Assembly (NCBI GenBank): GCA_937980645.1
Contig: CALJPQ010000009.1
Span: 54,018-118,017, forward strand
DNA length: 64,000 nt
Direction of reading: 5' to 3'
DNA from: an uncultured Saprospiraceae bacterium
Lineage (GTDB): Bacteria; Bacteroidota; Bacteroidia; Chitinophagales; Saprospiraceae
The translations under genes were made by a program, and so were the position numbers. Shown piece after piece: positions 6,682 through 30,003 of the stretch. How positions within the stretch are numbered: the first letter of the stretch is position 1; each line of letters starts with the position of its first letter. Under the pieces are notes generated by a model. That model was given only the letters and a program-made list of their open reading frames with translations. It was not told the origin of the DNA and searched no databases.

Positions 6682-9600
6682 TTCTTACGGGCAGATTTTC
6701 GGACGGGCGCTAGGGCCGACGGTGAGACGATTTCTTGAACGGGCGCTTGCATGGACTGCCGGGGCGAATAAGCCTTTTCGGCCCAATCGGCCACGGCCTT
6801 GCAGCATCGGTAGGGAAGGCTAAAGTCGGCAATGGCGCAGCCGTCGGCGTCGGCAACGAGGATGAACGTACCGCCTTTAGGCACGCCGGCCAGATGCTCA
6901 GCCCCCAACAGCGCCTGCCCGAACGACCAGGCGTGCAGGCGTGGATCGTCGGTGTCACCTAAGGCACACAGGTACTTATAGTCGTCCTTGGGGCAGGGCA
7001 GCTCTTGTAGGGCATCCACGGAGAGTTGCACGACGTCGAAGTCCAAGTTGTGCTTTTGCACCAGGAAGACCAGCGCCTCAAACACCGGGAACTCGGGCAA
7101 CGGCTCGTTGGCATCCGCAGATGGGTTTTCGTAGATGGTCGTGTTCTTTTTGCCTATTAGCCCTTCAATGCGATAGAAGTCGTAGGCATCGAGCGAATAG
7201 TAGAGCGGTCGCAGCGTGGGGCGCCGGCGCGAGTACGAGGGAAAGTCGGGCGGCGCATCCGTGGCGTGGTACGACAGGAGGCCGTCAGTGCTCAACGTCT
7301 TAAAGCGGCGATAGTTCCAGAAATGCTGGAGTGACTTGGGGTTGTCATTCAGCGGATAGTAGAACGGTATGGACTGCTCGCTCAAGGGATAGAAGTAGCT
7401 GCGGCCCGGCGTGATGCGCAGCCGCGAGAAGTCGGGCATCACCGGGATTTCCTCGTAACCCTTTTCGGGTTTACACCAGCCGGGCGGGTCAGCGTTGGGT
7501 AGATAGCCTTCAAGGTGAAAGCCTTCTATCATGGCAAACAGGCGGCAGAAGTACAATTTGCAGGCATCTAATCGGGCTGCATTGCCGTTGAAGATGGGCG
7601 GCTGCTGGAAGTAGTCGCGCAGTGGTGGACGTTCGTGGCAGGCTGTGGGGTGGTAGGCCGGACCGAGCATGAGGAAGCAGCGTTCCAGTTCGAGCATCTC
7701 CAGCGTCAGCGGGCGCAGGTCGTTCATCAGCTCCGTCAGAGTGTCGCGCAGCTCGTGGTAGGCCGCCATCAGGTCGCGCACCCAGTCGTAGAAGTATTGG
7801 GCGTAGTACTTGACGCCCTTTTCACCGGCGGGTAGCGCATCGTTGTACTTCACAAAGCGCAGCCACTTTTCCATCATCAGATCGCGCTTCTTGTGATAGG
7901 GCTGTGCGCTGAAGAGCGGAAACAGCATGGGCCGATAGCGCTCAATGAGCAAGCCTAACGTCTTATGCAGGTGCTGAAGCGCTTCGTCCACAATGGGCTT
8001 CCACGTCTGGTACAGGTCGTCGAGATGGCATATTTGGGGAAAATCGGTTGTGTCTAAATCCGCCGGAGCGCAGTCCTTGCCCTGGTAAAAGCCGAAACGG
8101 TAGAGCGATAGTTCGGGCAGCCCATAGGCCGGGTAGAGACAAAGCCAGAGCGCTTTGTCCGAAAGGATGTCGTCCTCAGGGCTATACGCTTTTTCAAAGA
8201 TATAGTCGGCGTTGGGGTTTTGGGGTTTGCATTTGTGGCTGAGCGACAGTTTTTGGAGCAGGTCTTCGCGCCGGATGAGCAGGTAATGGCGCTTGTCGTT
8301 GTCGGGCAGCAGGAGGATAATCTTATCGGCGATGAACGGTTGCTCCTGTTCTATTTGATTTTGGGGCGTCAGTGGCAGAGCGTCGCTGGGTAAGTTGTCA
8401 CTGGGCGGCAGCAGCTCCCACACGGGACAATCGCCAAAGTTGTGCTGAAAATTCAGGCAATCGCCCTCGTAGGCGAAAGGCCGATAATGTGAGAACACCA
8501 GTGCCCCGCTAATGACGTCCTCTTCGTCGCATTCACCGCTGCTGCCTAAACCCGTGTTGTCCTGGCGCGGCTCCACAACGAGCGCACCCTGGGGCGTAAC
8601 GCCAACACCCGGCGTGATGTGCACGTAATGCTTTTGGTCGGAGCGAATATCGAAACCGCCCACAAGGCCCCACCCTTGCAGTGCCAGGCGTGTCAGCCGA
8701 ACGCCTGCAACGTTGGGATTTTCGCAGCTATTTAAGTCCATACCCTCCAGCATTTGGAGAATTTCCTCTACCGTCGTCTTGTCCGCCTTTTTCTCCAACG
8801 CTACTGCTATCTCTGCCTTGCATTCCGCCAAGTCAGCTTTTGTTGCTGTTTCTTCCAATGCCTTCTGAACTCCATCTTTGAGGGTATCCAGGTCGGTCTG
8901 GTTGGCTTTGCTGTTTAATTGCTGTTGGGTTTGGGTTTTAAAATCGTCCAGGTCGGTCTGGTTGGCCTTTTGGGTTACTGTTTGGTTGATGGCGTCTAGG
9001 TCGGTCTGGTTGGCTTTGCTGTTTAATTGCTGTTGGGTTTGGGTTTTAAAATCGTCCAGGTCGGTCTGGTTGGCCTTTTGGGTTACTGTTTGGTTGATGG
9101 CATCTAGGTCGGTCTGGTTGGCTTTGCTGTTTAATTGCTGTTGGGTTTGGGTTTTAAAATCGTCCAGGTCGGTCTGGTTGGCCTTTTGGGTTACTGTTTG
9201 GTTGATGGCGTCCAGGTCGGTCTGGTTGGCTTTGCCGGTCAGGGTGGTTTTCAGGTCGTCTAATTCGGTCCGTTCGGCTTTGCCGTCCAGGGTGAATTGG
9301 GTTTGGGTTTTGAAGGCATCGAAGGTGGTGAGCAGCAATTTTTGAAGGATTTGCTGTTGGAGGTCGCTGTGGAGGTCAGCGATGTTTTGCTGGATAGGCC
9401 CTAGTTCGCGTGCGATGAGAAGCAGTGTCTGGGCTTCGGTGAGGCCGCCTGGGTTGGCCAGTTGGGTTTCGATGAAGGCGATGCGCTGGAGTAGGTCGGC
9501 GATGCGTGGGTCGCTATACTGCTGGAGTTGGTGGATATCATTTTGGATAGGGCCGAGGGCGTCTTTGATGAGTTGACGCGCGGCGGCCTCGGTCAGTGGC

Positions 9601-10010
9601 GCTTCGCCAAGGGCTTGATCTAAGGCAGCGATGCGCTGGGCGAGCATTTCCAGCGTTTGTACGTGTGGTTGGAGGCCGTCGGTGATGAGTTTTTGGGCTG
9701 CATTAGCATCCATTTTTTCAGCGATAGCCTGGGCTAGGTCCTTGAGTTGCTCAGCCAGTGCGGCGATTTTTTCTTGTGTCAGTGCCAGGTCGGCGTCCTG
9801 TGTCTGCACAGTTTGCTGCAGGACATCGAGGTCTTGCCGCAGGTTTTCGATGCCGAACGTTGGCATTTCAAGGATAGTCATCAGGTCGGCAATGACGCCG
9901 ATAGCGCGCGGAATTATGATCTGCGGTGAAGAGCCGCCAGGTGTTCGAAGTTGCTCGACGTGCTCCTGAAGTTGGGCTAAAAGTTCGCTAAAGCGGGCAT
10001 TATCGGGCAT
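6678..10010 (-). CDS. Tail-fibre-like protein (Afp13 position): N-terminal coiled-coil/repeat shaft plus about 670-aa unknown C-terminal domain
   Basis: 1110-aa ORF. The N-terminal 440 aa is heptad-like and Gln/Leu/Asp-rich, with three perfect 36-aa repeats ANQTDLDAINQTVTQKANQTDLDDFKTQTQQQLNSK. Positioned after the two baseplate wedge genes. Confidence 0.55.
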   Translation of the reverse strand: MPDNARFSELLAQLQEHVEQLRTPGGSSPQIIIPRAIGVIADLMTILEMPTFGIENLRQDLDVLQQTVQTQDADLALTQEKIAALAEQLKDLAQAIAEKMDANAAQKLITDGLQPHVQTLEMLAQRIAALDQALGEAPLTEAAARQLIKDALGPIQNDIHQLQQYSDPRIADLLQRIAFIETQLANPGGLTEAQTLLLIARELGPIQQNIADLHSDLQQQILQKLLLTTFDAFKTQTQFTLDGKAERTELDDLKTTLTGKANQTDLDAINQTVTQKANQTDLDDFKTQTQQQLNSKANQTDLDAINQTVTQKANQTDLDDFKTQTQQQLNSKANQTDLDAINQTVTQKANQTDLDDFKTQTQQQLNSKANQTDLDTLKDGVQKALEETATKADLAECKAEIAVALEKKADKTTVEEILQMLEGMDLNSCENPNVAGVRLTRLALQGWGLVGGFDIRSDQKHYVHITPGVGVTPQGALVVEPRQDNTGLGSSGECDEEDVISGALVFSHYRPFAYEGDCLNFQHNFGDCPVWELLPPSDNLPSDALPLTPQNQIEQEQPFIADKIILLLPDNDKRHYLLIRREDLLQKLSLSHKCKPQNPNADYIFEKAYSPEDDILSDKALWLCLYPAYGLPELSLYRFGFYQGKDCAPADLDTTDFPQICHLDDLYQTWKPIVDEALQHLHKTLGLLIERYRPMLFPLFSAQPYHKKRDLMMEKWLRFVKYNDALPAGEKGVKYYAQYFYDWVRDLMAAYHELRDTLTELMNDLRPLTLEMLELERCFLMLGPAYHPTACHERPPLRDYFQQPPIFNGNAARLDACKLYFCRLFAMIEGFHLEGYLPNADPPGWCKPEKGYEEIPVMPDFSRLRITPGRSYFYPLSEQSIPFYYPLNDNPKSLQHFWNYRRFKTLSTDGLLSYHATDAPPDFPSYSRRRPTLRPLYYSLDAYDFYRIEGLIGKKNTTIYENPSADANEPLPEFPVFEALVFLVQKHNLDFDVVQLSVDALQELPCPKDDYKYLCALGDTDDPRLHAWSFGQALLGAEHLAGVPKGGTFILVADADGCAIADFSLPYRCCKAVADWAEKAYSPRQSMQAPVQEIVSPSALAPVRKSARKK
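8886..9230 (-). repeat. In-frame tandem repeat, 108-bp period, about 3.2 copies, near-identical
   Basis: The motif tccaggtcggtctggttggc recurs with alternating 60/48-bp spacing (ends at 8906, 8966, 9014, 9074, 9122, 9182, 9230). Only a few substitutions are seen, e.g. gtctagg / atctagg / gtccagg. Confidence 0.9.
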
Positions 10011-10136
10011 GATGTATGAAGTTGAGTGGTGCGGTCAGCTCAGGTGTTCTTTAGGGTATTGTTCTTTTTTCAGGTCTTTTTCGAGGTAACAGCACAGCGC
10101 CTGTGCGATTCATTTTGTCACTGAAGCGTTGTCTTT

Positions 10137-12992
10137 TTATTCTTTAGGGACGCCACTTCCGCAATCTTGACAATCGTCGCAGGCATTTTCGGCATGGCAG
10201 CAGTGCTCGCATGAACAGGAGCAGAGCGTTGTATTGAGCCATTGGATGAGAGCGTTAGCGGCGGTGGTTACATGGCATTCGTCGGGCGTGCAGTCGGCTT
10301 TAGCTTCGAGCCAGGCCATGTAGCGCTCTTCGAAGGCGCGCATTTGTTCTTTGTCCACCCAGCAGAAGCGGACGGCATTTTCGGCGGGCAGTTCGCGTCG
10401 GAAATGCTGTTCGAAGCGGGTGCGAAACCGGGCGTTGGCGAAGCGCGCCGGCCAGTTGGGAGCCACCACCGTTACCCAGTTGGAATAGGGATCGACGACG
10501 AGGCGCTCCGGGTCGCAGCTGAGCGGCAGGCACAGCAGGTCGTCGGCCGGGTCGTTGGGTCGCAGTAGGATGTGTTCCAAGACGTGGAAGCCCTCTTTTT
10601 CGGCGTCGGGAGTGAAGCCCACCAGGGCCAGAATGTGCTCCAGCAGGTCGTGGGCCTCTTGTTCGCTGCCGGGTGGGCTGAAGAGTTCGACGGCACCTTT
10701 GACGGTGAAAAGCACGGCAAAACGGTCGCTCTCGGTGGGGTGGGAGCCAACGCTGTATCGTTCTTTGCGCCAGACGTCGGAATAGAGCTGGTCGCGGCGC
10801 TCTTTCGCCATTTTGGGCGAGTTGAAGCGTTTGCTGCGCAGCAGGATGGCGTTGTCGTCGGAGCTGGCGGTAGCCCCCAGGTCGCGGAAGGCAATCTGGT
10901 ATTGAGCGGCGCCGCCAGGTTTATGGACGGTTTGAATATCCAAGCGATAGGGTGGCGAAGTGAGCAGAGAACTGCTGCTCCAGTGGCCTTTGAGGCCGAG
11001 GGCGCGGTGGACGCGCTTTTTGACGCCAGCGACGTTGTCGGTGTTCCACACGGGCTTGCAGCGGTAGTTATAGCCTTTGGCACGGTCGGTGCTCAGGGTG
11101 GCCACTTCGCGCAGAAATTGGGCTTTGGCCTGAAGGTATTCGGTGAAGTCCTCGCTGGGGGTGTCGTTGCCTGAGCAGAGCAGGCCCAGGGCGTATTCGG
11201 TGAATGCTTCGCCGAAGCGCGCCAGCAGGTGGTCGAGCAGGCGGTTGCGGCGGTCTTGCCGGGTGGCTGTGTTTTCGGGGGTGAATTGTGCTAGTATGTC
11301 CGGGTCTAAGATGTCGCTCATGCCCGGCAGGGCGCTCAGGTCGGCGCTGAGATAGGTGGGCGCTGTAGAGTCTTGCTCCACGGCCATCAGGTCGCGCACC
11401 TGCTCTAAGTGCAGCAAGTAGGAGGCCAGCAGTTGGTCGAACAGGGCCAGGAAGGCCTGCAGCTGTTTGCGCACGCCTTTCTGGTAGGGCGTAGCCTCGT
11501 CGGAGAGGCCGTACTGGCCCACACCATAGACTTCGGGTAGGTCATACTGCAGGCTGCGGTAGTCGCCCAGGCCTTCGGGCGCTATGCCGCCGGGCGCTTC
11601 GGGGCCGCTGGGGTCGTCCATGCACAGGGCTTGCTTACGGCGCAGGCGTAGGGCTTCCTTGAGTGCCCCTTCCGACAGATCGCAGCGCATGCCGTTGTGC
11701 GACACATAGACACACGACGCACACAGGTCGAGTACGGCCTTCAGCGGGCGCTCGAGCGGGCTGTAGATGGGATAGGCTGTTTTTTCCTCGAAGGTTTCGC
11801 CCGGATACACCTTCACCTTCAGCTCGTGCACACCCACCACGTCGGGGTGAGCCGTGGCTGCGCTGATGAGGTCGGAATGGCGCACCTCAGTAGGCAAGCG
11901 GGCGGCATCTACTTCGGCGTCGTCTAAGAAGCCGTGCATTAGTAGCGGGCCGTTGAGGATCTCATCGTTGCAGTAGCCGCGAGCGCGCATCTGCTGGTAC
12001 GTACGGAAGCGAGGGCGAGGCGACAGGTGTTGCTCCATGCTCCACAGCGCCTCGACGGCGGCGTCCAACGGTTTGGTGTTAGGGCTAACCTCGAGGTGTA
12101 GGCACACGGCAACGCGCTTTTGGCCCACCGTGACCGGCGGCTCCACGTAGTCGTGGCACAAAAAGCGGTTGGCTTGCAGACGCTCCATCACGCGAGCCAC
12201 GACGGGCTGCGTCTGCAGCGGGTTGTCCGGGTCTATGTGGTCTTCCAAATCGAGCACAATGCGCGATAGACCGCTGAGCAGCAGCACTTTGTCGGAGTTC
12301 TTTGGTGCAGGCCCTTTGGCTAGGGGTACGTAGCCGAAGCGGCACAACAGCGCCTCTGCCAGCGCTGGGTTGGCTTTGGCCGACTCATCCGTCAAGCCTT
12401 CTGTTACCCATTTGGCTGCCTGCTCGAAGGCTGCTTTCAGGCGTTGGGCATAGCCGTCGTCCGTTTCGTTTTTTTGTTTTTGAATGAAATGCTGAAGGAA
12501 CTCCAGAAGAGCCTGCGCGTCGGGTTGCCATTGCCCATCGGGCGTTTGAGTGGCAACTTTTTTAAACCGAATGACTTTGCCTTCGGGCAGGTAAAGGACG
12601 TGAGCCTGGCCGTTTTTGTCGGTGAAAAGCGTTTGGGTGGTGTGTTTTTCCATCCACGCATTTTTCACACCCTTGACGTCTATCATCAGTTTGCGGAAGT
12701 CACGGGCGATTACGGGAGCCATGGGCAGCACTTCGTCGGGGCCGAAGAAGGTTTTGCCTTTGCCGTCGGCCAGCAGGTCGCCGATGTGGAGTTTGCGCGA
12801 GCGGTAGCCCAGGTCGGTGATGGCGTAGCAGAGCACCTCGAGCAGGGTGATACCCGGGTCGTGGGCGTTGAAGTCCGTCCACAGTTCAGTGGCCAGGTTT
12901 TCTAAATGCCGGATGCCCTCGCTGCGCAGCAGGTCGTAGTCGAGGCAGGGGTGGTCGGGTCGAGTAATAGGTATGACGTTGAGACTGCTCAT
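10137..12992 (-). CDS. Second baseplate wedge protein (Afp12 / gp7-like position) with Cys-rich C-terminal tail
   Basis: 951-aa ORF with an ATGA overlap to the Baseplate_J-like gene at 12989-12992. The N-terminus, LWTDFNAHDPGITLLEVLCYAITDLGYR, is typical of eCIS baseplate proteins as I recall them. The C-terminus reads LCSCSCEHCCHAENACDDCQDCGSG. Confidence 0.55.
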   Translation of the reverse strand: MSSLNVIPITRPDHPCLDYDLLRSEGIRHLENLATELWTDFNAHDPGITLLEVLCYAITDLGYRSRKLHIGDLLADGKGKTFFGPDEVLPMAPVIARDFRKLMIDVKGVKNAWMEKHTTQTLFTDKNGQAHVLYLPEGKVIRFKKVATQTPDGQWQPDAQALLEFLQHFIQKQKNETDDGYAQRLKAAFEQAAKWVTEGLTDESAKANPALAEALLCRFGYVPLAKGPAPKNSDKVLLLSGLSRIVLDLEDHIDPDNPLQTQPVVARVMERLQANRFLCHDYVEPPVTVGQKRVAVCLHLEVSPNTKPLDAAVEALWSMEQHLSPRPRFRTYQQMRARGYCNDEILNGPLLMHGFLDDAEVDAARLPTEVRHSDLISAATAHPDVVGVHELKVKVYPGETFEEKTAYPIYSPLERPLKAVLDLCASCVYVSHNGMRCDLSEGALKEALRLRRKQALCMDDPSGPEAPGGIAPEGLGDYRSLQYDLPEVYGVGQYGLSDEATPYQKGVRKQLQAFLALFDQLLASYLLHLEQVRDLMAVEQDSTAPTYLSADLSALPGMSDILDPDILAQFTPENTATRQDRRNRLLDHLLARFGEAFTEYALGLLCSGNDTPSEDFTEYLQAKAQFLREVATLSTDRAKGYNYRCKPVWNTDNVAGVKKRVHRALGLKGHWSSSSLLTSPPYRLDIQTVHKPGGAAQYQIAFRDLGATASSDDNAILLRSKRFNSPKMAKERRDQLYSDVWRKERYSVGSHPTESDRFAVLFTVKGAVELFSPPGSEQEAHDLLEHILALVGFTPDAEKEGFHVLEHILLRPNDPADDLLCLPLSCDPERLVVDPYSNWVTVVAPNWPARFANARFRTRFEQHFRRELPAENAVRFCWVDKEQMRAFEERYMAWLEAKADCTPDECHVTTAANALIQWLNTTLCSCSCEHCCHAENACDDCQDCGSGVPKE

Positions 12993-15900
12993 GGCTTATT
13001 CGTTTTGGATGTGCGGGTTTTGCGCGCGAGTGCGGGTTCGGAGGCGGCAGGTGGTGTTTCAGCACGCATGGTGGCGGTGGCGACGACCGTGACGGGCTGC
13101 GCCTGCGGGTTCGGATTCGTGCCGTTAGGCTTGTCCGTAGGTGGTTTTTGAGCGGTGGGCGAGCATTTCACCACATCGGGCAGTGCCTCATTAACGGCGA
13201 TGTAGCCGGCAACGAAAATAGAGCGGGCACTCGCGGGGCAGGCCTTCTCCAATATCCACTCTACAGCGGGCGTTTGGGTTAGCAGGTCTTTCTCCGATAT
13301 CGGCTTGCCTGCTGGGTCGAGGATTTGGCCAGCTACGTCCGTGCGCAGGCGGCGGATACGCAGGCTGTCCATGTAAACGTAGTCCACGTAGTAGCGTCCT
13401 TCGAGGAACCTTAAGAATTTGCTACGGGCGATGCTACGGCCAAACATGGGCGGCACATCTGGGTTGTTGAGCCAGGGGCTGAGGAAGTCGCGCAGTTCCT
13501 CCGCGAGTTTTTGTTTATAGAAGGCCTCATCGGTGTATTCGGGTTTGAATTTGACGTTGACCTTGATGTCCAGCGGTTCGTAATGTGGGTTGAGCACTTG
13601 GAGGCAGGTGTCTTCTTCGTCCGAACCATAGGCGACGAACAGGTTGGCTCGCGTAGCTAAGAAGTCGCGTATGTCGTCCAAATCCGCCTTAGGGAAGTGT
13701 GGCTGTTCCCAGGGTTCGTTGCGTAGGGCAGGGCGGGGCACGACGGCCAGGGTTATGTGGCCTGGAGCCAGTTCGGCAGCAACGGTGGTAGGTCGGTAGC
13801 ACGTATGCGGGATGCAGCGGACTACAGCCACATCGGGATAACGCTCCAACAGCAGATGTTCAAAGTCCCATACCGTTACGGCACGGTCGCGATGGCGCAG
13901 GCGTTCACTGATGCGTGTGCGGAAGGCGGTGCCTGTGGTTTCGGGCAAGCGACCGCCCACAGAGGGCAGCGGTTGGGTTACCTTGCGCACCTCGGCACGG
14001 CTTTCCAATAGGCTGCCAATGGTGCCGGCCGGCAGCGGTTGGGCTAAGTGGCTGAGGTCGTTATCGCGGCTGACAAAGCGGGCGCGCACAGCCTGGGCGT
14101 CAATGCCCATGAGCGAGGGCAGCGCTGAGGCTAAGCGCTTAGCGTCGGCTTCCTCCACCGCTGCCGCGCGCAGCCAATAGCGCTGGCCGGGCAGCATAGT
14201 CGTTCCTTTGACCGCCGCCGTAGGCACGGCAAACTGCACCATCCCACTGCGCGTCAGGCCGCGGGTTTCATCGCGCAGCACCTGGCCGGGGCCAAAGGGA
14301 TGCCACTCGTTGTTGGGGCCTAACCACGACCACACGATGCGTGGCGGCAGCGCCTCGGGGGCGCGCTCTGTACCTGCCGCTATGCGGAACAGCAACGACA
14401 GCGCGCTGCCCGGCACGAGCTTGTCTAAACCAATATACAGGTTGCCCGTGGCATAGGGTATAGGCGCTACCGGGCCAGATTCAGGGTCTTGCTGGTCGTG
14501 CGGGTTGTAGGGATAAACCAGTCGCCGCATAGGCACGCGCAGCGATACCTCCTTATGCCCATTGAAGGGCAACAGGTGGTAGAAACGGTCAATACCATCG
14601 TTTTCAGGGCCGCTGATGACCTGCACGGAACAGTATTCTAAAGAAATGCTGTTGACCGCGGGCGTGTAGGGCGGGTTCAACAGGTGTGCCTCTTTGGGCG
14701 CCGAAAGAGCGTAGTACGCCAACGCCTGCGGGTAAGCCTTGTGCAGAAAGTCCGTCTCTGTCAGGTGGAACACTAGAAAACCGCGCTTGAGGGTAGGGCT
14801 GTACTTCTCAAAGACCTGTGTCCGCACGTCGCGCACCAGGTTGAGCGCGTTGATGTTCACCTCAAAACAGCGCTTGATGGCCGAGTTGGCATCTAACAGA
14901 CCAACATAGTTGATTTCTTGATAAAATAAAATGACGTCAAGCGCCGATTTGCTGAAGTTCAGCCCGGGCTTTGGGTATTCCGCCGGTATCGAAACCACTT
15001 TTTTAACAAAATCAGCCGGCGCCTGAAAGTGCAGGACTTCAGCAAAATCCCAGGGCAAGGCGAGGGTATATTCCCCTTTAGCACCGGTTTGCGTCTCCGC
15101 GACCGCGATACCCTGGGCATCTGCGGCGGCTACTGCCACTTTAGACAACGGAGCACCCAGCACGTCGGTAACCTTGCCGCTAACGAAGAAAAAGACGGCC
15201 TTGGGCAATAGGCGAACGTCTAAGGCCATACAGCCCTGCTCGACGTTGACCCGAAGCGGCTGATAACCCGGGTGCCAAATTTCGACCGTGTTCGAGGCGC
15301 CTTGCAAGGCGGCGTCCAGGGTATAGACGCCCGAGACATCAGTTCGGGTCTGAGCGACAATAGCGCCCGAGGCACTTTGCAGATGGACGGCAACGCCCTG
15401 AAGAGGATTGTCTTGCGCATCCAGAACTTTCCCGCGCAGGGAAGGGCGCGCGGGGCGGACTTTGACCACTTGCCGCGCAAAGGGCGGCAGAGGCGTCTGG
15501 TCCGACGGATTGTCCATCTCCACAAAAACATCGCCCTCCAAAAATGTCAGCCTTCTCACGTTAACACCGCTCAAAGGGGTTATGGAGAAAGCACCATCCG
15601 CATTTGTTCGGGTCTCGTACTTGATGTATCCGCCGGCTAAAACGCCTTCCAGCGTTACGTGCACACCGGCAGCTGCCTGCGTATCGGCGCGTTTGAGCAC
15701 ACCCGATATGCCTGAAGTACTTACCGTCGGAGCAGAAGTCTCTGGCGACAGAACGACATCCAACCTACTCGACCAATTCGACCCAGTGATTTCTACGTTC
15801 CTGTAGCCCGTTTTTTTGAAAACAAGTTTGGAGACACCTGTAGCGGACAACGAAAAGATGTTGCCGTTAATCTGCGGCGTCGTAGCGGTAGCCATAACTT

Positions 15901-18900
15901 CGATGCTAACGCCCGTCAATGGCGCGCCGTTTGCATCGTAAACGCTGCCGCTGATGGTGCTTGCCTGAGGAGTGCCGTATGTCTGGTAGCCATTTGTAGG
16001 GAAGAGCGTTACGTCAAATTCAGAATAGCTGCCGATGGCAAATTCTTGTGGCTCAAAGCCAGCCAGGGAAATTTTTAGTCGAAATTCTCTATCCCCTCGG
16101 GTAATGTCCAGGCGGAACTGGCCGCTTTCCAGTATCGGTGTTTTGACTGTGGAACTCCCTGGTCGGACGACTTCAAACGTCAGGCCAGCGGTTACCGCGT
16201 CTCCTTTGTAATCTCGGACGCGCACGAAGACGGCGCTTTGGTGAAAGTCTTTTTCCACCTGGTTGATGGCAATGACGTGTGCGTCTATTTTGTCTTTCGC
16301 CAGCATAGTCGGCTGCATACCAGTGGGGTTGAGAATGGCATTGGCGTAAGCATTGGGCAGGAATTGCACCGGGCTATTACCAGAGGGTAGCGGAAGATCG
16401 TATTTACCATCATCCCTGGCAAAGGCCGAGATAGTCAGATCAGGGCTTTGGGCTACGGCATAAGCGCCCTTGCGGGGGGTGTGGTTGGTGTTTGCCAATA
16501 TCTGGCCGGATATACCGGGTTTTTTCGGGTCAATTGCATTGGCCCCCGGTGTTTCGCGGGTAAGCTCTGCCGGCTCCAGTACCACCCTAAGGTGCGTGAA
16601 GTCGTTCAGCTGAAGCGCGTCCAGATTGGGTTGCCGGTACTGATCGGTGTCTACACCGATGCTGAGTTCCTGATTGCCTTTGAGCGAGGCGGCGAATTTT
16701 CCGGAGGCATCTAAGTCCAGTGCCTTGTTGTCCAGCAAGAGATTGACACCGCTGGTGATGGGTTTGCCGTAGATGTCCACAACTTCGCCTTCGATTTGCT
16801 GGAATTTGCCAAAAACGACACTTTTGGGAAACAGCACGGCATTGATGACGCTGAACTCGCCTACCTCAATGGGCACGGCGTTAGAAGCGCCTTTTTCAGC
16901 GAACAGGACGAGGGGCTCATACAGCGGTGATTTGTCGGGGTCTGAGTCGCTCTGGGGCGGAGCAATGAACCGGATACTCAGGCCGGCGCTGACGCTCTGG
17001 AATTCGTATCGGCCTTCGACGTTTGTTTGAACTTCACTTACCACGCCGTTTGGGCCTACCAGCTGTACGGTGATGTCTTTGATGGGCGCCCCGTTGTTCA
17101 TGTCTGTGACGGTACCGCTCAGGAGACCGTTAGCGGGTCGTTTGCCAAAGCGCGCCAGCTGTTTGGGCGCTGGTGCGTCAGCGCGATCAATGAAATCAAT
17201 TTTCAGGTAGGGGGTCGGGGTTGGGAAGTTAATCTGGGCAATGACCTGGTTGTTTGGCCCCAGCGTAGTGTGCCGATAGGCGGCATAGTGTTTTTCAAAA
17301 TCTTCGGGTGGCGCAATCCAGTCGAAGCAGACCCGTAAGCAGGTGAGGGCTTTTTGGAAGACTTCGGTACTACCTAAATAGAATTTGTGGCCCACCTCAG
17401 GAGCGGGGCCGAAAGGAAAGACTTTTTGCGTGCCGTCGTAGAGGCCCTGGTCGTTTTGGAAGATGAGTTTTTCGCGGATTCCGGAAGCCTTCACCTCAAT
17501 ACTTACGGTACCGATAAGGAGTTGGCGCAGGGCTTCGTAAATGCCGGTGGTGGTAGGCGTCGGGCTGGGCGGGCAGCTCTGCAGGCGTTCGGCGTTGATG
17601 AGTATACGCAGCAGTGGCCAAGGGGTGTCGAAGCCGGCTTTAGCGGCCGCTTGTGGGCCAAAGGCCTCGATAGGCGGGTCGTCGCGCTCCAGGACGATGC
17701 GCAGATGCAGCGTATTGTTTTCGAAGAAGATATTGAAGGCTCCGCGTTCCACATCAGGTGTGGGGGTCCCAGTAACAATGCGATCGGGACGATGTTCCAG
17801 GCGAACCCACCCTCCCTTAGTGCTGAGCCAGACGCCGAGTAAGTCTTGTTGGTCAATCCACGAAAGGTCGGCATTGACAGGCTCGAGCACCTGCATTTTC
17901 ACATCAATGATGCGCTTGCCCTCGCGCAGGATGAGCTGTGGGCTGGAGAAGGCCCAGCCCAGCAAGCCGTCGGGCAATTCGTTATCGTCGCCCATGCCGC
18001 GCCAGTGGGCGGTGGTTTCGTTGGGTTTTTCCAGACGGCCTTTATAGATCTTGCTGACGTCGGGGTTGGCGTTGATTTTTCCACAAGCAAGGTCAATGTA
18101 GGTGTTGCGAAGGTCAGCCACGGTCGCTTGGCGGAGCACCCAGTCTTCGATGGCCTCAAAGAGTAAGGGTGCGCCGTTTTTGTCCTTACCAGCCAGAAAG
18201 ACATCGCCTTTTTGCAGCAGAAACTGGTCGGCGTCGCGGGCTAGTTCAAAGATAAGCCATACATCGTCGGGCATTTCTGGGCGCCGGCACAGGCTAAGCA
18301 CGTGGTCGTAGTAGTAGTCTAAGTGATTGTCGCCCAGTTCATTGAGGCTATCCTGTGCGTGTCGGAACAGGCGCAGGAAGGCGATGAAAAGGGCGACGTG
18401 GGGTTCCATGGCGCGTTTGGCAACGTCCTCGGGCAGGTCCGCATGGGCCAGTTCGGCGTCGAAGGCGGCCTGGGCGTCGGCCTTCAGTAGGAGCCAGGCG
18501 TCGAAGTAGGTGGCGAAGAGGGTGCGCAGGGCCTCACGCGTAACGGTGCCGCTGGGCAGGATGGCCTCGAAGGTGGCGCGGTTGCGCAGCCCCCAGCGTT
18601 CGTCGTGGGAGAAAAAGCCTTCGTAGTGGATGTAGGCCAGCTTGTCAGGTGGTGGGGTAGCGGCCTTGTGGAAGGCGATGAGTTTGCGCAGAGCGCTTTC
18701 CAATTCGTCGGTGTCGCAGCAATTGTCGCGGCGGATGCTATTGAGCAGGCGCGTTTGTAGTGGGTGTTTGATCTGGACGAGTTTCTGATAGGTTTCTTCG
18801 AGCGACCAGGCCATTTGGCGCAGCAGCTCAATGAGGGGCAGGTAGGCAGCCAGTGGGTGTGTCGGGGCTTTTTTGCCTTTTTGGATGGGAGGGGCGGTCA

Positions 18901-23886: not shown

Positions 23887-25287
23887 TTACTCAGGCAGCG
23901 TGTGCATAAAGCGCAGGACGATGAATTCGGCGGGTCGCACGACGGCCATGCCGATTTCGACGATGAGGCGCCCATTGAGGATGTCGTCGGTGGTCATGGT
24001 CTGGCCCAGGCCCACGTGCACGAAGAAGGCCTGTTCGGGCTTGGCGCCCTGGAGTGCGCCAGCGCGCCATTGGAGGATGAGGAAGTTTTCAATCATTGAA
24101 CGCACGCTTACCCACGTGTTAGCGTCGTTCGGCTCGAACACGAAGCGGTAGGTCGCCTTCTTGACGGACTCTTCGACGTAGTTGAAAAAGCGGCGGACGT
24201 TGATGTAGCGCCATTCGTTGTCGTTGCCGGCCAGCGTGCGCGCCCCCCAGATGACGGTGCCGCGGGCCGTGATGTTGCGAATGACGTTGATGGAATAACC
24301 GCCGTTGACGTCCACGTTCAGTTCTGCCTGCTCCAAATCATTGATAAGTATGGCTGGTCCAAGCACGTTGACTAAGCTGACGTTGGCTGGTGCTTTCCAC
24401 ACACCGCGGGAGGCATCCACAGCAGCATACGCGCCCGCAACAGCAGCGGCAGGGTATAGCGTGGGGCCTTCGGTGGCGATGGCCTGCCTGATGGCATTGT
24501 ACAGCGCACCTGTGTTGGGAATGTCGGCCGAGCCTAACTTCTTGTCTTTTAGCGGGCCGTCGGTGGGCGCACCACCGTCTTTGGATACCTTGTGGGCGAT
24601 CTTTACGTCGTCGTTAGTATACACGTAGTTCAGTTGCGTCAGCAGCGCCGGGTAGTAAGCCGCGCCGTATTTGAGATTTTCCGTGCCGATGTGCTGGCGG
24701 AATTGGGTCACATCTTTGACATCCATGACAACGAAGCGGTCCTTGAGTTCGCCGGCCTGGTTGAGTGCCTTTTTGTAAAGGTTGCAGATGGCGCTTTGCG
24801 AAGCAATGCCGGTAGCGTCGGGGAAGATCAACAGGGTGGGTTCGTCCAATTTCTCTACCTCTTCAAGGCCTTTTTCCAGGTCGCCTGCTGTGGGTGCATC
24901 GGCTGGGTTGCCTGTTCCAACGGACACCACGTAGCAGGTACTACCGCCGTTAGCGAAGAACATCTGCATGTGGTAGTACATGTTGCGTTTGGCGGGCGTC
25001 GCGCTCACCGCGAGGGTGCGGCGCAACAGCACGTCGCTGGCGTCGGTAGCGTCGTGGATGGTTACTTCAATGCCGCCTTCTGCGACGCGCCCAAAGAAGC
25101 TTTCGTACTCTCGGAGCGAGCGTATTTTACGCGGTTTCAGCACCAGATCGCCAGGTGTCTTCTCTTCAGCTTTTTCTGTGTAACCGATAAAAGCCGGGAT
25201 GCTGGTTTCTACACCTGCTACCGAGGGCGGTAGCATAGCGACTTCGTGTACGTACACTCCCGGCGTCTTAAGATCTGTAAGATTCAT
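23887..25287 (-). CDS. Contractile tail sheath protein (single sheath gene)
   Basis: 466 aa. TPGVYVHEV...IPAFIGYTEKA at the N-terminus; ...VWGARTLAGNDNEWRYINVRRFFNYVEESV... in the C-terminal sheath domain. Confidence 0.85.
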   Translation of the reverse strand: MNLTDLKTPGVYVHEVAMLPPSVAGVETSIPAFIGYTEKAEEKTPGDLVLKPRKIRSLREYESFFGRVAEGGIEVTIHDATDASDVLLRRTLAVSATPAKRNMYYHMQMFFANGGSTCYVVSVGTGNPADAPTAGDLEKGLEEVEKLDEPTLLIFPDATGIASQSAICNLYKKALNQAGELKDRFVVMDVKDVTQFRQHIGTENLKYGAAYYPALLTQLNYVYTNDDVKIAHKVSKDGGAPTDGPLKDKKLGSADIPNTGALYNAIRQAIATEGPTLYPAAAVAGAYAAVDASRGVWKAPANVSLVNVLGPAILINDLEQAELNVDVNGGYSINVIRNITARGTVIWGARTLAGNDNEWRYINVRRFFNYVEESVKKATYRFVFEPNDANTWVSVRSMIENFLILQWRAGALQGAKPEQAFFVHVGLGQTMTTDDILNGRLIVEIGMAVVRPAEFIVLRFMHTLPE

Positions 25288-25359: not shown

Positions 25360-26106
25360 CTAAACCGGCTCAAATCGAAGGTCGTAGCGAATGGGGGTAT
25401 CGTAGTCGGTATTTTGGTCTTTGAAAATGCGGATGACAGCGACGACGTCTTCGTATAATAATGCGGTGTCGGCAATAGCTAATTGCTCGCCCGGAGGCAC
25501 CCCAACGTGCGCAAAGCGGTAGACGCCAGCGGGTAATTCGATGAGCAAGGGTAGTTTCTTTTTGTCGGAGGCATCGAACACCAGCGATGTCGCGGGCGGC
25601 CCTGGGCGACGCGGTGTTACCTGTACGGCAGTTACGCCTGCCGGTGGTGCGTAGATGAGCCGCTCTGGGAGGCGAGCCGCTCGGTGTTGAGCAGCAGCCG
25701 TGAACGTCAGGGCTAGTATGCCGTTATCGTTGACCAGGCCCTGATCGGGCGCCAGCGCAGCATTCAGGTTATCGAAGTACAGCGTTTGGGGTTGGCTCAG
25801 CAGCGAGGGCGTGGTGGCATTGAAAGGCTTAAGGTTACCTAAGGCCACTTTGTTTTTGGCTTTTAATAAAAAGGTAAATGCTTGCACTCGATTCAGTTTC
25901 CGAACGATCGTTTTTGTGCCGTCGGGCAACACTTTTTTTTCCGCAATGGCGACCGCCGACGATGGATAAGCTTTGAACAGCAGCCCGTGGTTGCGCAGCG
26001 CCAGCGTGCCATCGTCGGTTGGCTGCAGGGTGAAAAAATCTGGCTCCAGCGGGTGAAGGATGCGCAGGGCGAAGAGGATGTCGTATTTCCAGTTGATGGT
26101 GCTCAT
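25360..26106 (-). CDS. Hypothetical eCIS-associated protein (248 aa) between the cap and sheath genes
   Basis: Intact ORF, translationally coupled to the DUF4255 gene (ATGA at 26103-26106). I recognise no family. Confidence 0.5.
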   Translation of the reverse strand: MSTINWKYDILFALRILHPLEPDFFTLQPTDDGTLALRNHGLLFKAYPSSAVAIAEKKVLPDGTKTIVRKLNRVQAFTFLLKAKNKVALGNLKPFNATTPSLLSQPQTLYFDNLNAALAPDQGLVNDNGILALTFTAAAQHRAARLPERLIYAPPAGVTAVQVTPRRPGPPATSLVFDASDKKKLPLLIELPAGVYRFAHVGVPPGEQLAIADTALLYEDVVAVIRIFKDQNTDYDTPIRYDLRFEPV

Positions 26107-26678
26107 AGCGGTTGCGGTGTCGCGCCAATGCCCGTAACCACGCCGGCGTCTTGCGGCTGCTGTCGCTGGATGATAAGCAGGCGCATTTTGTAGAGCACTG
26201 AGGGCAGGTATTTACTGCCGTTGATACCCCACAGGTGGTTGAGCGCTTCGAAGTTGAGGGAATGAAGGTCGAAAATCAGCTTTTCAATACCCACGGCTTT
26301 CAGCGCCGGGTCGGCAAAAACGTGACGCGCCTGAAAGAACTCAAGGATGTCGCCCACAAGGCGCAAGGACTCAGCGTATTGATTTTTGTTCGCGCTGAAC
26401 AGAACATAGACGTTGATGAACACTTCGGGCGGTTGTCCCACGGTTTTAGGCAGCCCGTCGTCGCCGTTCACCTTGCGATGATAGGGCTGGTTGCGCAACG
26501 CCGCCTCCTGTTCGATATTGACCACCGTGGCAATGCCCACGTTCGTCAGGTTTTGTGTTGAGCTGTCTTGCCCCGAATCCACCGCCGACACATTGCCCAG
26601 CACTACTTCTGGCGGACTGACCTGGCCAAGATCGGCATTGAGCTGCTGGAGAAGCCAATTGAGCGCTATGTCTATCAT
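26103..26678 (-). CDS. DUF4255 (Pvc16 N-terminal-like) tail terminator/cap protein (Afp16 analogue); first gene of the operon
   Basis: 191 aa. MIDIALNWLLQQLNADLG...VVLGNVS... and overall length fit DUF4255, a marker family of eCIS loci. Confidence 0.7.
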   Translation of the reverse strand: MIDIALNWLLQQLNADLGQVSPPEVVLGNVSAVDSGQDSSTQNLTNVGIATVVNIEQEAALRNQPYHRKVNGDDGLPKTVGQPPEVFINVYVLFSANKNQYAESLRLVGDILEFFQARHVFADPALKAVGIEKLIFDLHSLNFEALNHLWGINGSKYLPSVLYKMRLLIIQRQQPQDAGVVTGIGATPQPL

Positions 26679-26918: not shown

Positions 26919-27275
26919 TTAAGACATATGTTCCAAATTGCCGTAGCATTGCCGGTAAGCAGATGGGCATACGCCAAAGACCTCTTTGAAACGCCGGGTA
27001 AAGTAGCTGGAGTCGTTAAAACCCGTTTTCTGGGCGATTTGCTCAATGGAGCATTCCGGGCATGTGAGCAGTAGTTTTGCCGCGCACTCCAACCGCATTT
27101 GGCGCACGTAGGCTGTGGTGGACAGGCCCGTCGCGTCTTTGATTTTTCGGTGCAGATCGGTGCGGCTCATACACATTCTGCGCGTTAAGCGCCTAACGTT
27201 GAGATCCGGATCGGCAAGGCACTGCTCAACGGTTTGGCGCAGCCGACTTAGGAAAATTTTAGTACTGCTTGGCAT
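26919..27275 (-). CDS. AraC-type helix-turn-helix protein, DNA-binding domain only
   Basis: 118 aa. LNVRRLTRRMCMSRTDLHRKIKDATGLSTTAYVRQMRLECAAKLL...IEQIAQKTGFNDSSYFTRRFKEVFGVCPSAYR is a dual-HTH AraC C-terminal domain. No sensor domain ORF lies upstream. Confidence 0.75.
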   Translation of the reverse strand: MPSSTKIFLSRLRQTVEQCLADPDLNVRRLTRRMCMSRTDLHRKIKDATGLSTTAYVRQMRLECAAKLLLTCPECSIEQIAQKTGFNDSSYFTRRFKEVFGVCPSAYRQCYGNLEHMS

Positions 27276-28115: not shown

Positions 28116-28430
28116 GTGAAGACCGTAGCGCTGCTTTTAGGCCTTTGTTCTGTTTTGGGCGCCGTTAGCGCGCAGCCCATGCCCGCCGAGGTCAAGCGGG
28201 TGATGGGTAAATATGCCTGTACGACCTGCCATGCGCCTCAAGTGCGGCTTATCGGCCCCAGCTGGCAGCAGCTGGCCCAGCGCAACTATACGCCCAGACA
28301 ATTAGCTGCTCTCATGCGCAAGCCGCAGCCCGAGAACTGGCCCGACTATCCGCCTATGGAACCCATTCCCACCTTCACCAACGCCGACGCGAAAATCATT
28401 GCCGACTGGCTCAAGCAAATTCAAAACTGA
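28116..28430 (+). CDS. Small periplasmic c-type cytochrome
   Basis: 104 aa with signal peptide MKTVALLLGLCSVLGAVSA, a single CTTCH haem-binding motif and a distal Met region. GTG start. Confidence 0.7.
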   Translation: MKTVALLLGLCSVLGAVSAQPMPAEVKRVMGKYACTTCHAPQVRLIGPSWQQLAQRNYTPRQLAALMRKPQPENWPDYPPMEPIPTFTNADAKIIADWLKQIQN

Positions 28431-28440
28431 CTCCTTTGTT

Positions 28441-30003
28441 ATGGAACGAAAAGAAGCCTTTAGCGCCGAAATGACCAAAGGATACACCTTCAGCGGCCCG
28501 TCTTTTGTGTTGGGCGGCGCCATGCTCGATGGCGAAGCCATTCCAGGCTTGCAGGTAAAAATCCCGCTGCGCACCATGAACCGCCACGGTCTCATCGCAG
28601 GCGCTACGGGCACGGGTAAGACCAAAACCCTGCAAGCCATCGCCGAGCAGCTGGCCGCCCATGGCGTGCCTACCCTGCTCATGGACATCAAGGGCGACCT
28701 TTCGGGCGTGGCCATGCCCGGCGTGGAAAACCCAAAAATCACGGAGCGCGTCGCCAAAATCGGCCTCGAATGGAAGCCCGCGCGCTACACGGTAGAGTTT
28801 CTATCCCTGTCGGATGAAAAAGGCGCCCGCCTGCGCGCTACAGTCAGCGAATTTGGCCCGGTGCTGTTCAGCCGCATCCTGGGCCTCAATGATACCCAGG
28901 GCGGCGTGGTGGCCGTCATCTTCAAATTCTGCGACGACCACGGACTGCCACTGCTCGACCTGAAGGACTTCAAAAAAGTGCTCCAATATCTGGGCAACGA
29001 GGGTAAGGCTGCTATCGAGGCCGAATACGGACAGTTCAGCGCCGCCAGCGCTGCCACCATCCTGCGCAAGGTCATCGAACTGGAACAACAGGGCGCCGAG
29101 CGCTTCTTTGGCGAGCTGTCGTTCGAAGTGCAAGACCTCTGCCGCACCGACGAAAACGGGCGCGGCGTAGTACACATCGTTCGCTTGACCGACATCCAGG
29201 ACCGCCCCAAGCTGTTCAGCACGTTCATGCTGCAGATGCTGGCCGAGATTTACGCCACATTCCCCGAAGAAGGCGACCTCGACCAGCCCAAGTTGTGCAT
29301 TTTCGTGGATGAGGCGCACTTAGTGTTCCAGGAGGCTACACCAGCACTGATGCAGCAATTAGAAGCCATCATCAAACTTATTCGCTCCAAAGGCATCGGC
29401 ATCTTTTTCATCACCCAAAACCCGGTGGACATCCCTGAAAGCATTCTGGCCCAATTGGGCCTGAAGGTGCAGCATGCTCTGCGCGCCTTTACGGCCAAAG
29501 ACCGCAAGGCCATCAAACTGGCCGCACAGAACTATCCCATCACGCAGTGGTACAAGACCGAAGACGTGCTGACGCATCTGGGCATCGGCGAGGCGTTGGT
29601 AAGCGCCCTGAACGAAAAGGGCATCCCTACGCCGCTGGCACACGTGCTGGTACGCCCCCCCGAAACGCGCATGGATGTGCTGACGCCGGCGGAGATTGAC
29701 CAGGTCATCGCCCAGTCGAAGCTCGTGCGCAAGTACAATCAGGAGATTGACCGCCAGAGCGCTTACGAAATCCTATCGGAAAAAATCCAGGAGGTCCAGG
29801 AACGCACGCCGCAAAAGGGCACCACCACCGCCTCGCGCCCGGCGCGGCAGGAGAAGAGTGTTTTTGAACAGGTGCTCGACAGCCCCACCACGCGCCAGAT
29901 AGGTAATACCATCGTGCGCGAACTGACGCGCGGCCTGCTGGGCGTGCTGGGAGCGGGCGGCAGCAGCACGCGCCGGCGTAAAAGCAACAAAGGGTGGTTG
30001 TAA
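28441..30003 (+). CDS. DUF853 / HerA-like P-loop ATPase (YjgR family)
   Basis: Walker A motif AGATGTGKTKTLQ; Walker B-like motif LCIFVDEAHLVF. Start moved to the ATG at 28441 (MERKEAF...), which removes the overlap with the cytochrome c gene. Confidence 0.8.
   Translation: MERKEAFSAEMTKGYTFSGPSFVLGGAMLDGEAIPGLQVKIPLRTMNRHGLIAGATGTGKTKTLQAIAEQLAAHGVPTLLMDIKGDLSGVAMPGVENPKITERVAKIGLEWKPARYTVEFLSLSDEKGARLRATVSEFGPVLFSRILGLNDTQGGVVAVIFKFCDDHGLPLLDLKDFKKVLQYLGNEGKAAIEAEYGQFSAASAATILRKVIELEQQGAERFFGELSFEVQDLCRTDENGRGVVHIVRLTDIQDRPKLFSTFMLQMLAEIYATFPEEGDLDQPKLCIFVDEAHLVFQEATPALMQQLEAIIKLIRSKGIGIFFITQNPVDIPESILAQLGLKVQHALRAFTAKDRKAIKLAAQNYPITQWYKTEDVLTHLGIGEALVSALNEKGIPTPLAHVLVRPPETRMDVLTPAEIDQVIAQSKLVRKYNQEIDRQSAYEILSEKIQEVQERTPQKGTTTASRPARQEKSVFEQVLDSPTTRQIGNTIVRELTRGLLGVLGAGGSSTRRRKSNKGWL

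Follow-up and report, generated by a model that had tools for sequence, protein, structure and literature searches.

An eight-module CarboxypepD_reg-type array inserted in the spike-cage domain of a giant Cis11 baseplate protein from a Saprospiraceae-like contractile injection system

The closest described systems are the extracellular contractile injection system (eCIS) of Algoriphagus machipongonensis, AlgoCIS (Xu et al., 2022, PMC8894135), and the thylakoid-anchored contractile injection system (tCIS) of Anabaena (Weiss et al., 2022, PMC8894136). In AlgoCIS, domain IV of the baseplate wedge protein Alg11 (residues 278–643) forms a "spike cage" with two modules resembling carbohydrate-binding modules (CBMs) and a tip loop containing Lys572, and the PAAR component occupies the cage tip (PMC8894135). 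The published cage lumen is 18–56 Å wide and is occupied by the spike and PAAR, and cage opening has been described as a defined step in the stepwise firing of both AlgoCIS and tCIS. The authors of the AlgoCIS study proposed that the CBM-like cage serves attachment and called a cage site an "evolutionary hotspot" (PMC8894135), and both spike-cage papers stated that the function of the cage is unknown (PMC8894135, PMC8894136). Here, a 64,000-nucleotide stretch of contig CALJPQ010000009.1 (hereafter the window) was analyzed, with the focus on its cis11 gene, which encodes a 2073-amino-acid (aa) wedge protein carrying an array of CarboxypepD_reg-type beta-sandwich modules within the cage domain.

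Based on its sequence homology, the 2073-aa protein is a cage-bearing wedge subunit of the Cis11/Afp11/T4 gp6 type. Comparison with the PDB by phmmer returned Anabaena Cis11 (All3317, 1231 aa; E 6.5e-95), Alg11 (1050 aa; 3.9e-84), 9rce_A, another Baseplate_J-like chain (1323 aa; 4.1e-37), Pvc11 (728 aa; 4.8e-32), and Afp11 (607 aa; 3.2e-24). Together with the position of the gene in its operon, this homology bore out the role of gp6/Afp11-position wedge protein of a contractile injection locus given to it in a preliminary description of this DNA. The label "Baseplate_J-like" used there held with respect to the solved chains, but the Pfam family Baseplate_J (PF04865) itself gave no match to the protein at E ≤ 1; this direct route to family membership was dropped, and PDB homology was used instead. 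The label is sound because of the homology to solved Cis11, Alg11, Pvc11, and Afp11 and because PF04865 matched homologues (P0059, 4e-10; P0123, 6e-6; P0149, 7.6e-9), the link to Pfam being transitive only. Alg11 (7aeb chain G) has the same gene position and is homologous across the N-terminal core, cage domain IV, and the C-terminal core, while Anabaena Cis11 (7b5h) has the cage domain and both the N- and C-terminal extensions in common with the present protein. Afp11 (6rao) and Pvc11 (6j0n) share the Baseplate_J-type C-terminal core and the wedge role, but have neither the cage domain nor the array. The gene and the parts of its product that flank the array are as follows (window coordinates; residue numbers refer to the protein):

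12989..19210, minus strand: cis11 gene, gp6/Afp11-type baseplate wedge protein of 2073 aa with spike cage and inserted array; a single ATG-to-stop open reading frame (ORF)
17981..19210, minus strand: residues 1–410, N-terminal core, comprising the core-bundle/trifurcation part and a lineage-specific N-terminal extension; aligns to All3317 8–88 and 241–~380 and to Alg11 110–224; 54–91% identity among orthologues
17123..17980, minus strand: residues 411–696, N-terminal stretch of the spike-cage domain, corresponding to Alg11 277–502 (phmmer alignment, Foldseek)
17720..17797, minus strand: residues ~472–497, "site A", a second hot spot of the cage, empty here (BLASTP mapping of relatives)
14531..14902, minus strand: residues 1437–1560, C-terminal stretch of the cage domain with the counterpart of the Alg11 tip loop; conserved more strongly among orthologues (53–93%) than any other segment
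13331..14530, minus strand: residues 1561–1960, conserved Baseplate_J-type C-terminal core (iris ring); aligns to All3317 749–1169, Alg11 553–990, Pvc11 350–681, and Afp11 246–432
12992..13330, minus strand: residues 1961–2073, Pro/Thr/Ala-rich C-terminal tail, poorly conserved in sequence (19–75% identity among orthologues)

In the phmmer alignment, residues 412–662 corresponded to Alg11 277–502 and residues from 1485 onwards to Alg11 553 onwards, with the tip residue Lys572 of Alg11 aligned to residue ~1504. The intervening Alg11 residues 503–552 (about 50) are replaced by ~820 residues (663–1484), a position referred to here as site B. Anabaena Cis11 has about 55 residues at this site, and the homologue P0036 (1221 aa), which lacks an insert, has 38 aa compared to about 800 in the present protein. 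From these alignment flanks and the published limits of domain IV, the alignments and predicted models showed that the array is inserted within the cage domain and that its end lies about 70 residues upstream of the tip loop. The array had previously been considered as a possible cage in its own right, which was not confirmed: the cage is already published in this lineage, consists in Alg11 of two CBM-like modules only, and is the domain into which the array is inserted. By homology, Cis11 would assemble with Cis12 as a hexamer of heterodimers around the spike, with six cages closing on VgrG-PAAR and opening at firing. Six copies of the array, as anticipated earlier, amount to 48 modules per baseplate, or roughly 0.47 MDa. 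Since six arrays of 79 kDa are too large for the published lumen, they presumably must be located on the exterior of the cage or on its distal face. The cage, its CBM-like nature, and its status as a hot spot are already published; no description of an array of CarboxypepD_reg modules, or of SusD or CBM5/12 inserts, in Cis11 was found in the searchable literature on contractile injection and the spike cage, and the ~740-aa array inside the cage domain appears to be undescribed so far.

The array comprises residues 697–1436 (740 aa, net charge −16, almost no cysteine) and consists of eight tandem CarboxypepD_reg-type beta-sandwich modules (M1–M8) with almost no linkers between them. This agreed with the preliminary description, in which about eight CarboxypepD_reg/transthyretin-like modules were placed at 14921–17128, corresponding to residues 695–1430 of an ORF of 2073 aa; the five seed motifs quoted there are present at residues 697, 806, 1086, 1258, and 1343. 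The Pfam profile CarboxypepD_reg (PF13620) matched five stretches with 135.1 bits (cut-off 32.3; E 1.1e-39), and PF13715 (CarbopepD_reg_2) reached 79 bits (cut-off 32.2). A hidden Markov model (HMM) derived from the five obvious repeats of the protein was too narrow, detecting few modules in homologues and none of M3, M4, and M6, and it was replaced by a family-wide module HMM based on canonical modules taken from all homologues, for which 200 shuffles gave a null maximum of 4.4 bits. The family-wide HMM produced eight collinear matches, six of them strong (29–57 bits). In profile–profile comparisons, all eight module profiles matched M7 with hhalign probabilities of at least 96%, although the alignment rows behind the module column blocks may mix repeats. 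The modules were delimited as follows:

16811..17122, minus strand: M1, residues 697–800, CarboxypepD_reg-like, with an internal low-confidence loop at ~750–787; family HMM 38.7 bits
16547..16804, minus strand: M2, residues 803–888, CarboxypepD_reg-like; family HMM 29.0 bits
16241..16528, minus strand: M3, residues 895–990, divergent beta-sandwich; hhalign 97.4% to M7, all-beta with pLDDT >90 in AlphaFold2
15965..16240, minus strand: M4, residues 991–1082, CarboxypepD_reg-like; weak Pfam match (E 0.12), family HMM 29.0 bits, hhalign 97.1% to M7
15719..15964, minus strand: M5, residues 1083–1164, CarboxypepD_reg-like; family HMM 49.2 bits
15449..15718, minus strand: M6, residues 1165–1254, divergent CarboxypepD_reg-like; hhalign 96.1% to M7, confident in AlphaFold2
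15188..15448, minus strand: M7, residues 1255–1341, most canonical CarboxypepD_reg module; best Pfam stretch 1257–1321, family HMM 57.4 bits
14903..15187, minus strand: M8, residues 1342–1436, CarboxypepD_reg-like; family HMM 44.3 bits

M6 remained sub-threshold when searched alone with PF13620 (5e-5, 24 bits, below the gathering cut-off) and scored 5.7 bits with the family HMM. M3 had no Pfam match, and its family HMM score of 3.5 bits was under the shuffle maximum. The count of eight modules is nevertheless supported, with M3, the weakest member, being assigned via profile–profile comparison and structure prediction only.

An AlphaFold2 model of residues 400–1590 (51-sequence alignment) had a predicted local distance difference test score (pLDDT) of 87.3 and a predicted template modeling score (pTM) of 0.71, with unbroken beta structure over residues 697–1436; for the array alone (residues 690–1440), these values were 86.8 and 0.77. 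Each module was predicted to contain ~7 strands at a pLDDT of ~90, as in a prealbumin/transthyretin-like sandwich. The top Foldseek matches of the model were 7aeb_G (1.2e-15) and 7b5h_AH (1e-12), i.e., Alg11 and Anabaena Cis11, followed by the tandem CnaB/prealbumin-type sandwiches of TIE, BcpA, SdrD B1-B2, SpaA, and the MG domains of alpha-2-macroglobulin (probability 1.00). In the Foldseek comparison with the PDB, no solved structure was arranged like the array as a whole (query-normalised TM-score ≤0.14). The pTM of 0.77 hints at a fixed packing of the modules and, with the near absence of linkers, fits a rigid body. This would suit a purely structural role, in which the array enlarges and stiffens the cage as armor or scaffold (a shell for the spike/PAAR tip, a dock for fibres, or a surface for contact between particles) with no part in target recognition. 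The uniform fold of the modules and the lack of a tip domain point in the same direction, as does the attachment of short fibres at a cage site in metamorphosis-associated contractile structures (MACs; PMC8894135).

No tandem repeat was detected at the DNA level in the array gene, and inter-module alignment scores were 22–80 compared to self-scores of 405–521 (about 5–15% of self). The modules are old, as follows from these two observations, and on the same grounds both a recent duplication in tandem and a repeat artefact of the assembler were rejected. A long ORF in metagenomic DNA could also have arisen from an assembly chimera or from a gene fusion caused by sequencing error, and one Cis11 homologue, at 8795–15167 of locus L005 (Saprospiraceae metagenome-assembled genome (MAG) JBKBLI010000010.1), appears to be divided between two overlapping ORFs (1606 and 519 aa), which may reflect a frameshift or sequencing error or a genuine split. 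However, the identical 2073-aa protein is encoded on two separately assembled contigs (Logan; ENA/NCBI), the gene contains no DNA repeats able to mislead an assembler, and the N- and C-terminal parts are halves of one fold that are contiguous in solved structures. In addition, the architecture is shared by homologues at 84, 59, 52, and 45% identity, the order of N-terminal core, array, and C-terminal core recurs in over 30 homologues of 1750–2200 aa (32–84% identity), and synteny of the giant gene extends to at least nine species-level genomes. An artefactual origin is therefore exceedingly improbable.

To place the protein among its relatives, homologues were collected by a word-indexed search, which yielded 67, and by an exhaustive search in which the C-terminal 634 aa served as query (4171 representatives at E ≤ 0.001, 1834 at E ≤ 1e-30). 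Lengths were surveyed in the best 150 representatives (50% identity), 113 of which appeared complete (starting with M and at least 1000 aa). The median length of these 113 was 1331 aa, 25 were at least 1600 aa long, and the longest had 2408 aa. The protein is thus unusually long, as had been noted, but at about 1.6 times the norm of its own lineage rather than more than twice; the much shorter Afp11 and Pvc11 are distant. The closest lineage already reaches 1050–1330 aa because it carries the published spike-cage domain. Further giant Cis11 ORFs were seen in loci L037 (1845 aa), L055 (Lentimicrobiaceae MAG; at least 1891 aa), and L073 (at least 2011 aa). A possible length trade-off between Cis11 and the Cis12 or fibre genes was suggested by one pair of loci (sums of 4134 and 4144 aa) and was rejected after inspection of ~75 loci, by eye and without statistics, gave no obvious pattern. 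The array was also matched by virome-labelled "Baseplate J like" or "baseplate wedge" models in BFVD (A0A8S5MMD3, A0A8S5V178, and A0A8S5P719; E 1e-27 to 1e-20, with the "Baseplate J like" models at 1e-27 to 1e-22), so that the architecture recurs in public data without functional annotation. These entries, labelled Siphoviridae sp. ctxc31, ct3r22, and Herelleviridae sp., may be contractile injection loci filed as phage or phages that are similarly decorated.

Across relatives, the inserts at site B were graded in length (0, ~97 [one module], 376, 430–470, 565, 626, and 700–760 aa) and held 0, 1, 4–5, 6, 7, or 8 modules. Eight HMM-detectable modules were present in the distant homologues P0015, P0023, P0024, and P0031; when modules were matched to these by position, only M7 and M8 tended to pair, the sequences being too diverged. 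A second position, site A (Alg11 ~336–350), is also located within domain IV and was mapped by BLASTP of P0043, P0076, P0085, P0105, P0123, P0139, P0149, and P0198 against the insert-free P0036, with the inserts identified by Pfam. P0043 carries a ~565-aa SusD-like insert at site A, one of the SusD_RagB/SusD-like_3 type inserts found in sister Cis11 proteins. P0073, P0076, P0085, and P0091 are also of the SusD type, with site A mapped directly for P0076 and P0085, in which sites A and B are both filled. In P0105, P0123, P0139, P0149, and P0198, site A holds blocks of 900–1270 aa containing CBM_5_12. The possibility that the SusD-like inserts occupy the same site as the array was rejected, as the mapping put them upstream in the same domain. 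Sequence mapping thereby showed two insertion hot spots in the cage domain across the lineage, and operon order was unchanged in loci with each kind of insert. In a rough neighbor-joining tree of the C-terminal core, made without support values, arrays fell into two clades with insert-free and SusD clades between them, and a separate clade was formed by the CBM5/12 giants, a pattern that suggests repeated gain, loss, and resizing of inserts. A third kind of enlargement, about 435 aa without a Pfam match, was observed just before the cage (P0036 ~365–376) in P0059, P0061, P0063, and P0064 (1515–1529 aa).

Pairwise global alignments between the protein and its homologues revealed that the array evolves much faster than the flanking cores: compared to P0003, cores were 70–83% and modules 29–46% identical, and compared to P0015, 44–62% and 18–26%, respectively. 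Tight structural interfaces are usually conserved, and this divergence argues against the array being armor or scaffold. Zero or one module suffices in the otherwise syntenic loci of relatives, so the array is dispensable for assembly; the other inserts in the cage domain belong to recognised glycan-binding families (SusD, CBM5/12); and Cis11 length bears no obvious relation to how long the downstream Cis12 and fibre genes are. On balance, we consider a solely structural role unlikely, though it deserves some weight.

With about even confidence, we propose from the sequence evidence that the arrays of the six cage-bearing Cis11 subunits act as exposed appendages that contact the target surface, most likely its glycans. 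The hexameric cage would, by homology, enclose the VgrG-PAAR spike, and the six arrays on its outer or distal face would form a target-facing contact layer that binds surface polymers of the target cell, most likely glycans, or spaces the particle against them. Because cage opening is a step in firing, engagement of the appendages could, speculatively, feed into triggering by helping to couple target contact to an outward tilting of the cage before firing. Target contact is suggested by the published attachment proposal and hot spot, by the glycan-binding families among the other inserts, and by the fast evolution of the array. Among the roles offered earlier for the modules (skirt, adhesin, or receptor-binding layer), the comparative data favor an exposed one that faces the target. 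Several points weigh against this proposal. All eight modules are of one fold without a distinct tip domain, CarboxypepD_reg domains are often mere spacers, and loosely constrained spacer domains would likewise be expected to evolve faster. Moreover, judging from its sequence, the 1110-aa fibre-like protein encoded in the locus is a separate receptor-binding device.

The array has parallels in phage immunoglobulin (Ig)-like decorations and in the CnaB/SdrD-B stalks of Gram-positive adhesins, which are likewise small beta-sandwiches added to a conserved structural protein. Such modules are thought to be surface-exposed and to provide weak, often carbohydrate-directed adhesion or reach; phage Ig-like domains were reportedly treated by Fraser et al. 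in 2006 and mucus adherence by Barr et al. in 2013. In phages and adhesins, the modules are usually terminal and one to few in number, whereas here eight are internal to a cage-domain loop of a wedge protein. A second parallel is the N-terminal CarboxypepD_reg-like domain of SusC/RagA, to which M5 is the nearest module (TIGR04056, profile positions 2–76, 4.9e-15). The likeness of M5 to SusC and the SusD-like inserts in sister Cis11 proteins suggest a recruitment of surface modules typical of the phylum. In contrast to SusC/SusD, no TonB-dependent barrel, plug, or lipoprotein signal is present here, and the modules form part of a baseplate protein.

More generally, the spike cage might be a modular target-recognition platform whose sites A and B are loaded according to lineage, with the insert, beyond the tail fibre, setting or tuning the target range and feeding into cage opening. 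We advance this broader reading tentatively, as one that has the odds somewhat against it. Natural cage variants with SusD-like domains, CBM5/12, or a fast-evolving array provide independent comparative support for the receptor idea, and they turn the question of the purpose of the cage into a testable form at two mapped sites. Engineering of the target range in eCIS protein delivery has so far centered on tail fibres; the cage sites are candidate positions for this and, if the platform reading is true, sites A and B would be ready-made for retargeting.

The cis11 gene lies between those of the gp25-like sheath initiator and Cis12 in a complete contractile-injection-system operon on the minus strand. 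The operon encodes, in order, a Pvc16_N cap protein, a 248-aa protein without a Pfam match, the sheath, two gp19-type tube proteins, a DUF5908 protein (58 aa), CIS_tube/Cis7, VgrG, PAAR, gp25, the 2073-aa Cis11, the 951-aa Cis12, a 1110-aa fibre-like protein, the tape measure, and two DUF4157/eCIS_core cargo-like proteins. The order gp25–cis11–Cis12, along with sheath, tube, VgrG, PAAR, and tape measure, was kept in nine related genomes. The operon make-up matches that of AlgoCIS (cap, sheath, two tubes, DUF5908 plug, Cis7, VgrG, PAAR, gp25, Cis11, Cis12, fibre, tape measure, and DUF4157 cargo). The closest genome match was an uncultured Saprospiraceae MAG (83% identity); the host of the operon is a Saprospiraceae-like Bacteroidota genome, and the system belongs to the AlgoCIS/tCIS lineage. 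The structural genes around cis11 include:

26103-26678, minus strand: Pvc16_N cap protein
23887-25287, minus strand: sheath
20075..21904, minus strand: VgrG-like spike (Cis8), enclosed by the cage; PF04717 6.6e-18, PF05954 2.5e-9
19723..20013, minus strand: PAAR protein (Cis10); PF05488 3.3e-26
19207..19629, minus strand: gp25-like sheath initiator (Cis9), whose gene overlaps the start of cis11; PF04965 1.1e-23
10137..12992, minus strand: Cis12, gp7/gp6-like wedge partner, 951 aa; All3315 1.8e-104, Alg12 2.6e-92
6678..10010, minus strand: tail-fibre-like protein, 1110 aa; All3314 1.3e-18 (18 chains in 7b5h), PKD-domain protein 9wt0_a, which we take to be the AlgoCIS fibre Alg19, 7.5e-11 (3 chains)

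The lineage of the host bears on a further reading, in which the operon encodes a cell-bound machine similar to tCIS or to the type VI secretion system (T6SS) of subtype iv (T6SS-iv), with the array as a tether between the baseplate and the membrane or envelope of the producer. The host is Saprospiraceae-like, and Aureispira, a cultured member of the Saprospiraceae, has a T6SS that is anchored in the cell and bears a Cis11 cage. The cage of T6SS-iv helps to contact the inner membrane (PMC8894135), the top-scoring solved homologue is the thylakoid-anchored Cis11 of Anabaena, and M5 resembles a domain of SusC that is periplasmic. However, in a hydropathy scan of the operon's structural proteins, Cis11, Cis12, and the fibre-like protein included, no transmembrane (TM)-like segment was found. 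In the membrane-anchored Anabaena system, by contrast, the fibre-like Cis13, which is touched by the C-terminal extension of Cis11, has a transmembrane domain, and Cis12 touches the membrane (PMC8894136). The locus furthermore has the eCIS hallmarks of AlgoCIS (Pvc16_N cap, tape measure, and DUF4157 cargo), and the SusD and CBM5/12 inserts of relatives suit extracellular glycans better than the cytoplasmic face of the producer. Anchoring in the producer cell is quite improbable in view of this, and contact of the arrays with the target surface remains the reading we prefer.

The two DUF4157/eCIS_core proteins downstream of the tape measure (3148-4725 and 2140-3129, both minus strand) are putative effectors based on their sequences; one had a weak Peptidase_M91-like match (1.2e-5) and the other a weak group XII phospholipase A2-like C-terminus (2.6e-5, under the cut-off). 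At the downstream end of the operon, a 320-aa protein without a Pfam match (1144-2106, minus strand) has a strongly hydrophobic N-terminus (residues 1–35); a TM-like or signal-like segment was seen in no other protein of the operon. No gene for an AAA+ ATPase of the Cis15 type was recognised among the scanned operon ORFs (window 1-28400); the operon may extend beyond the start of the window, or the gene may be located elsewhere. Rfam and tRNA scans detected no Rfam family or tRNA in the whole window, including an ORF-poor stretch at 26.7–28.4 kb. Within that stretch, directly upstream of the first gene of the system, a stand-alone AraC-type helix-turn-helix protein of 118 aa (26919-27275, minus strand; PF12833 1.7e-24, PF00165 4e-13) is a candidate regulator of the operon. 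Just past the operon, a HerA-like ATPase is encoded on the opposite strand (28399-30003, plus strand).

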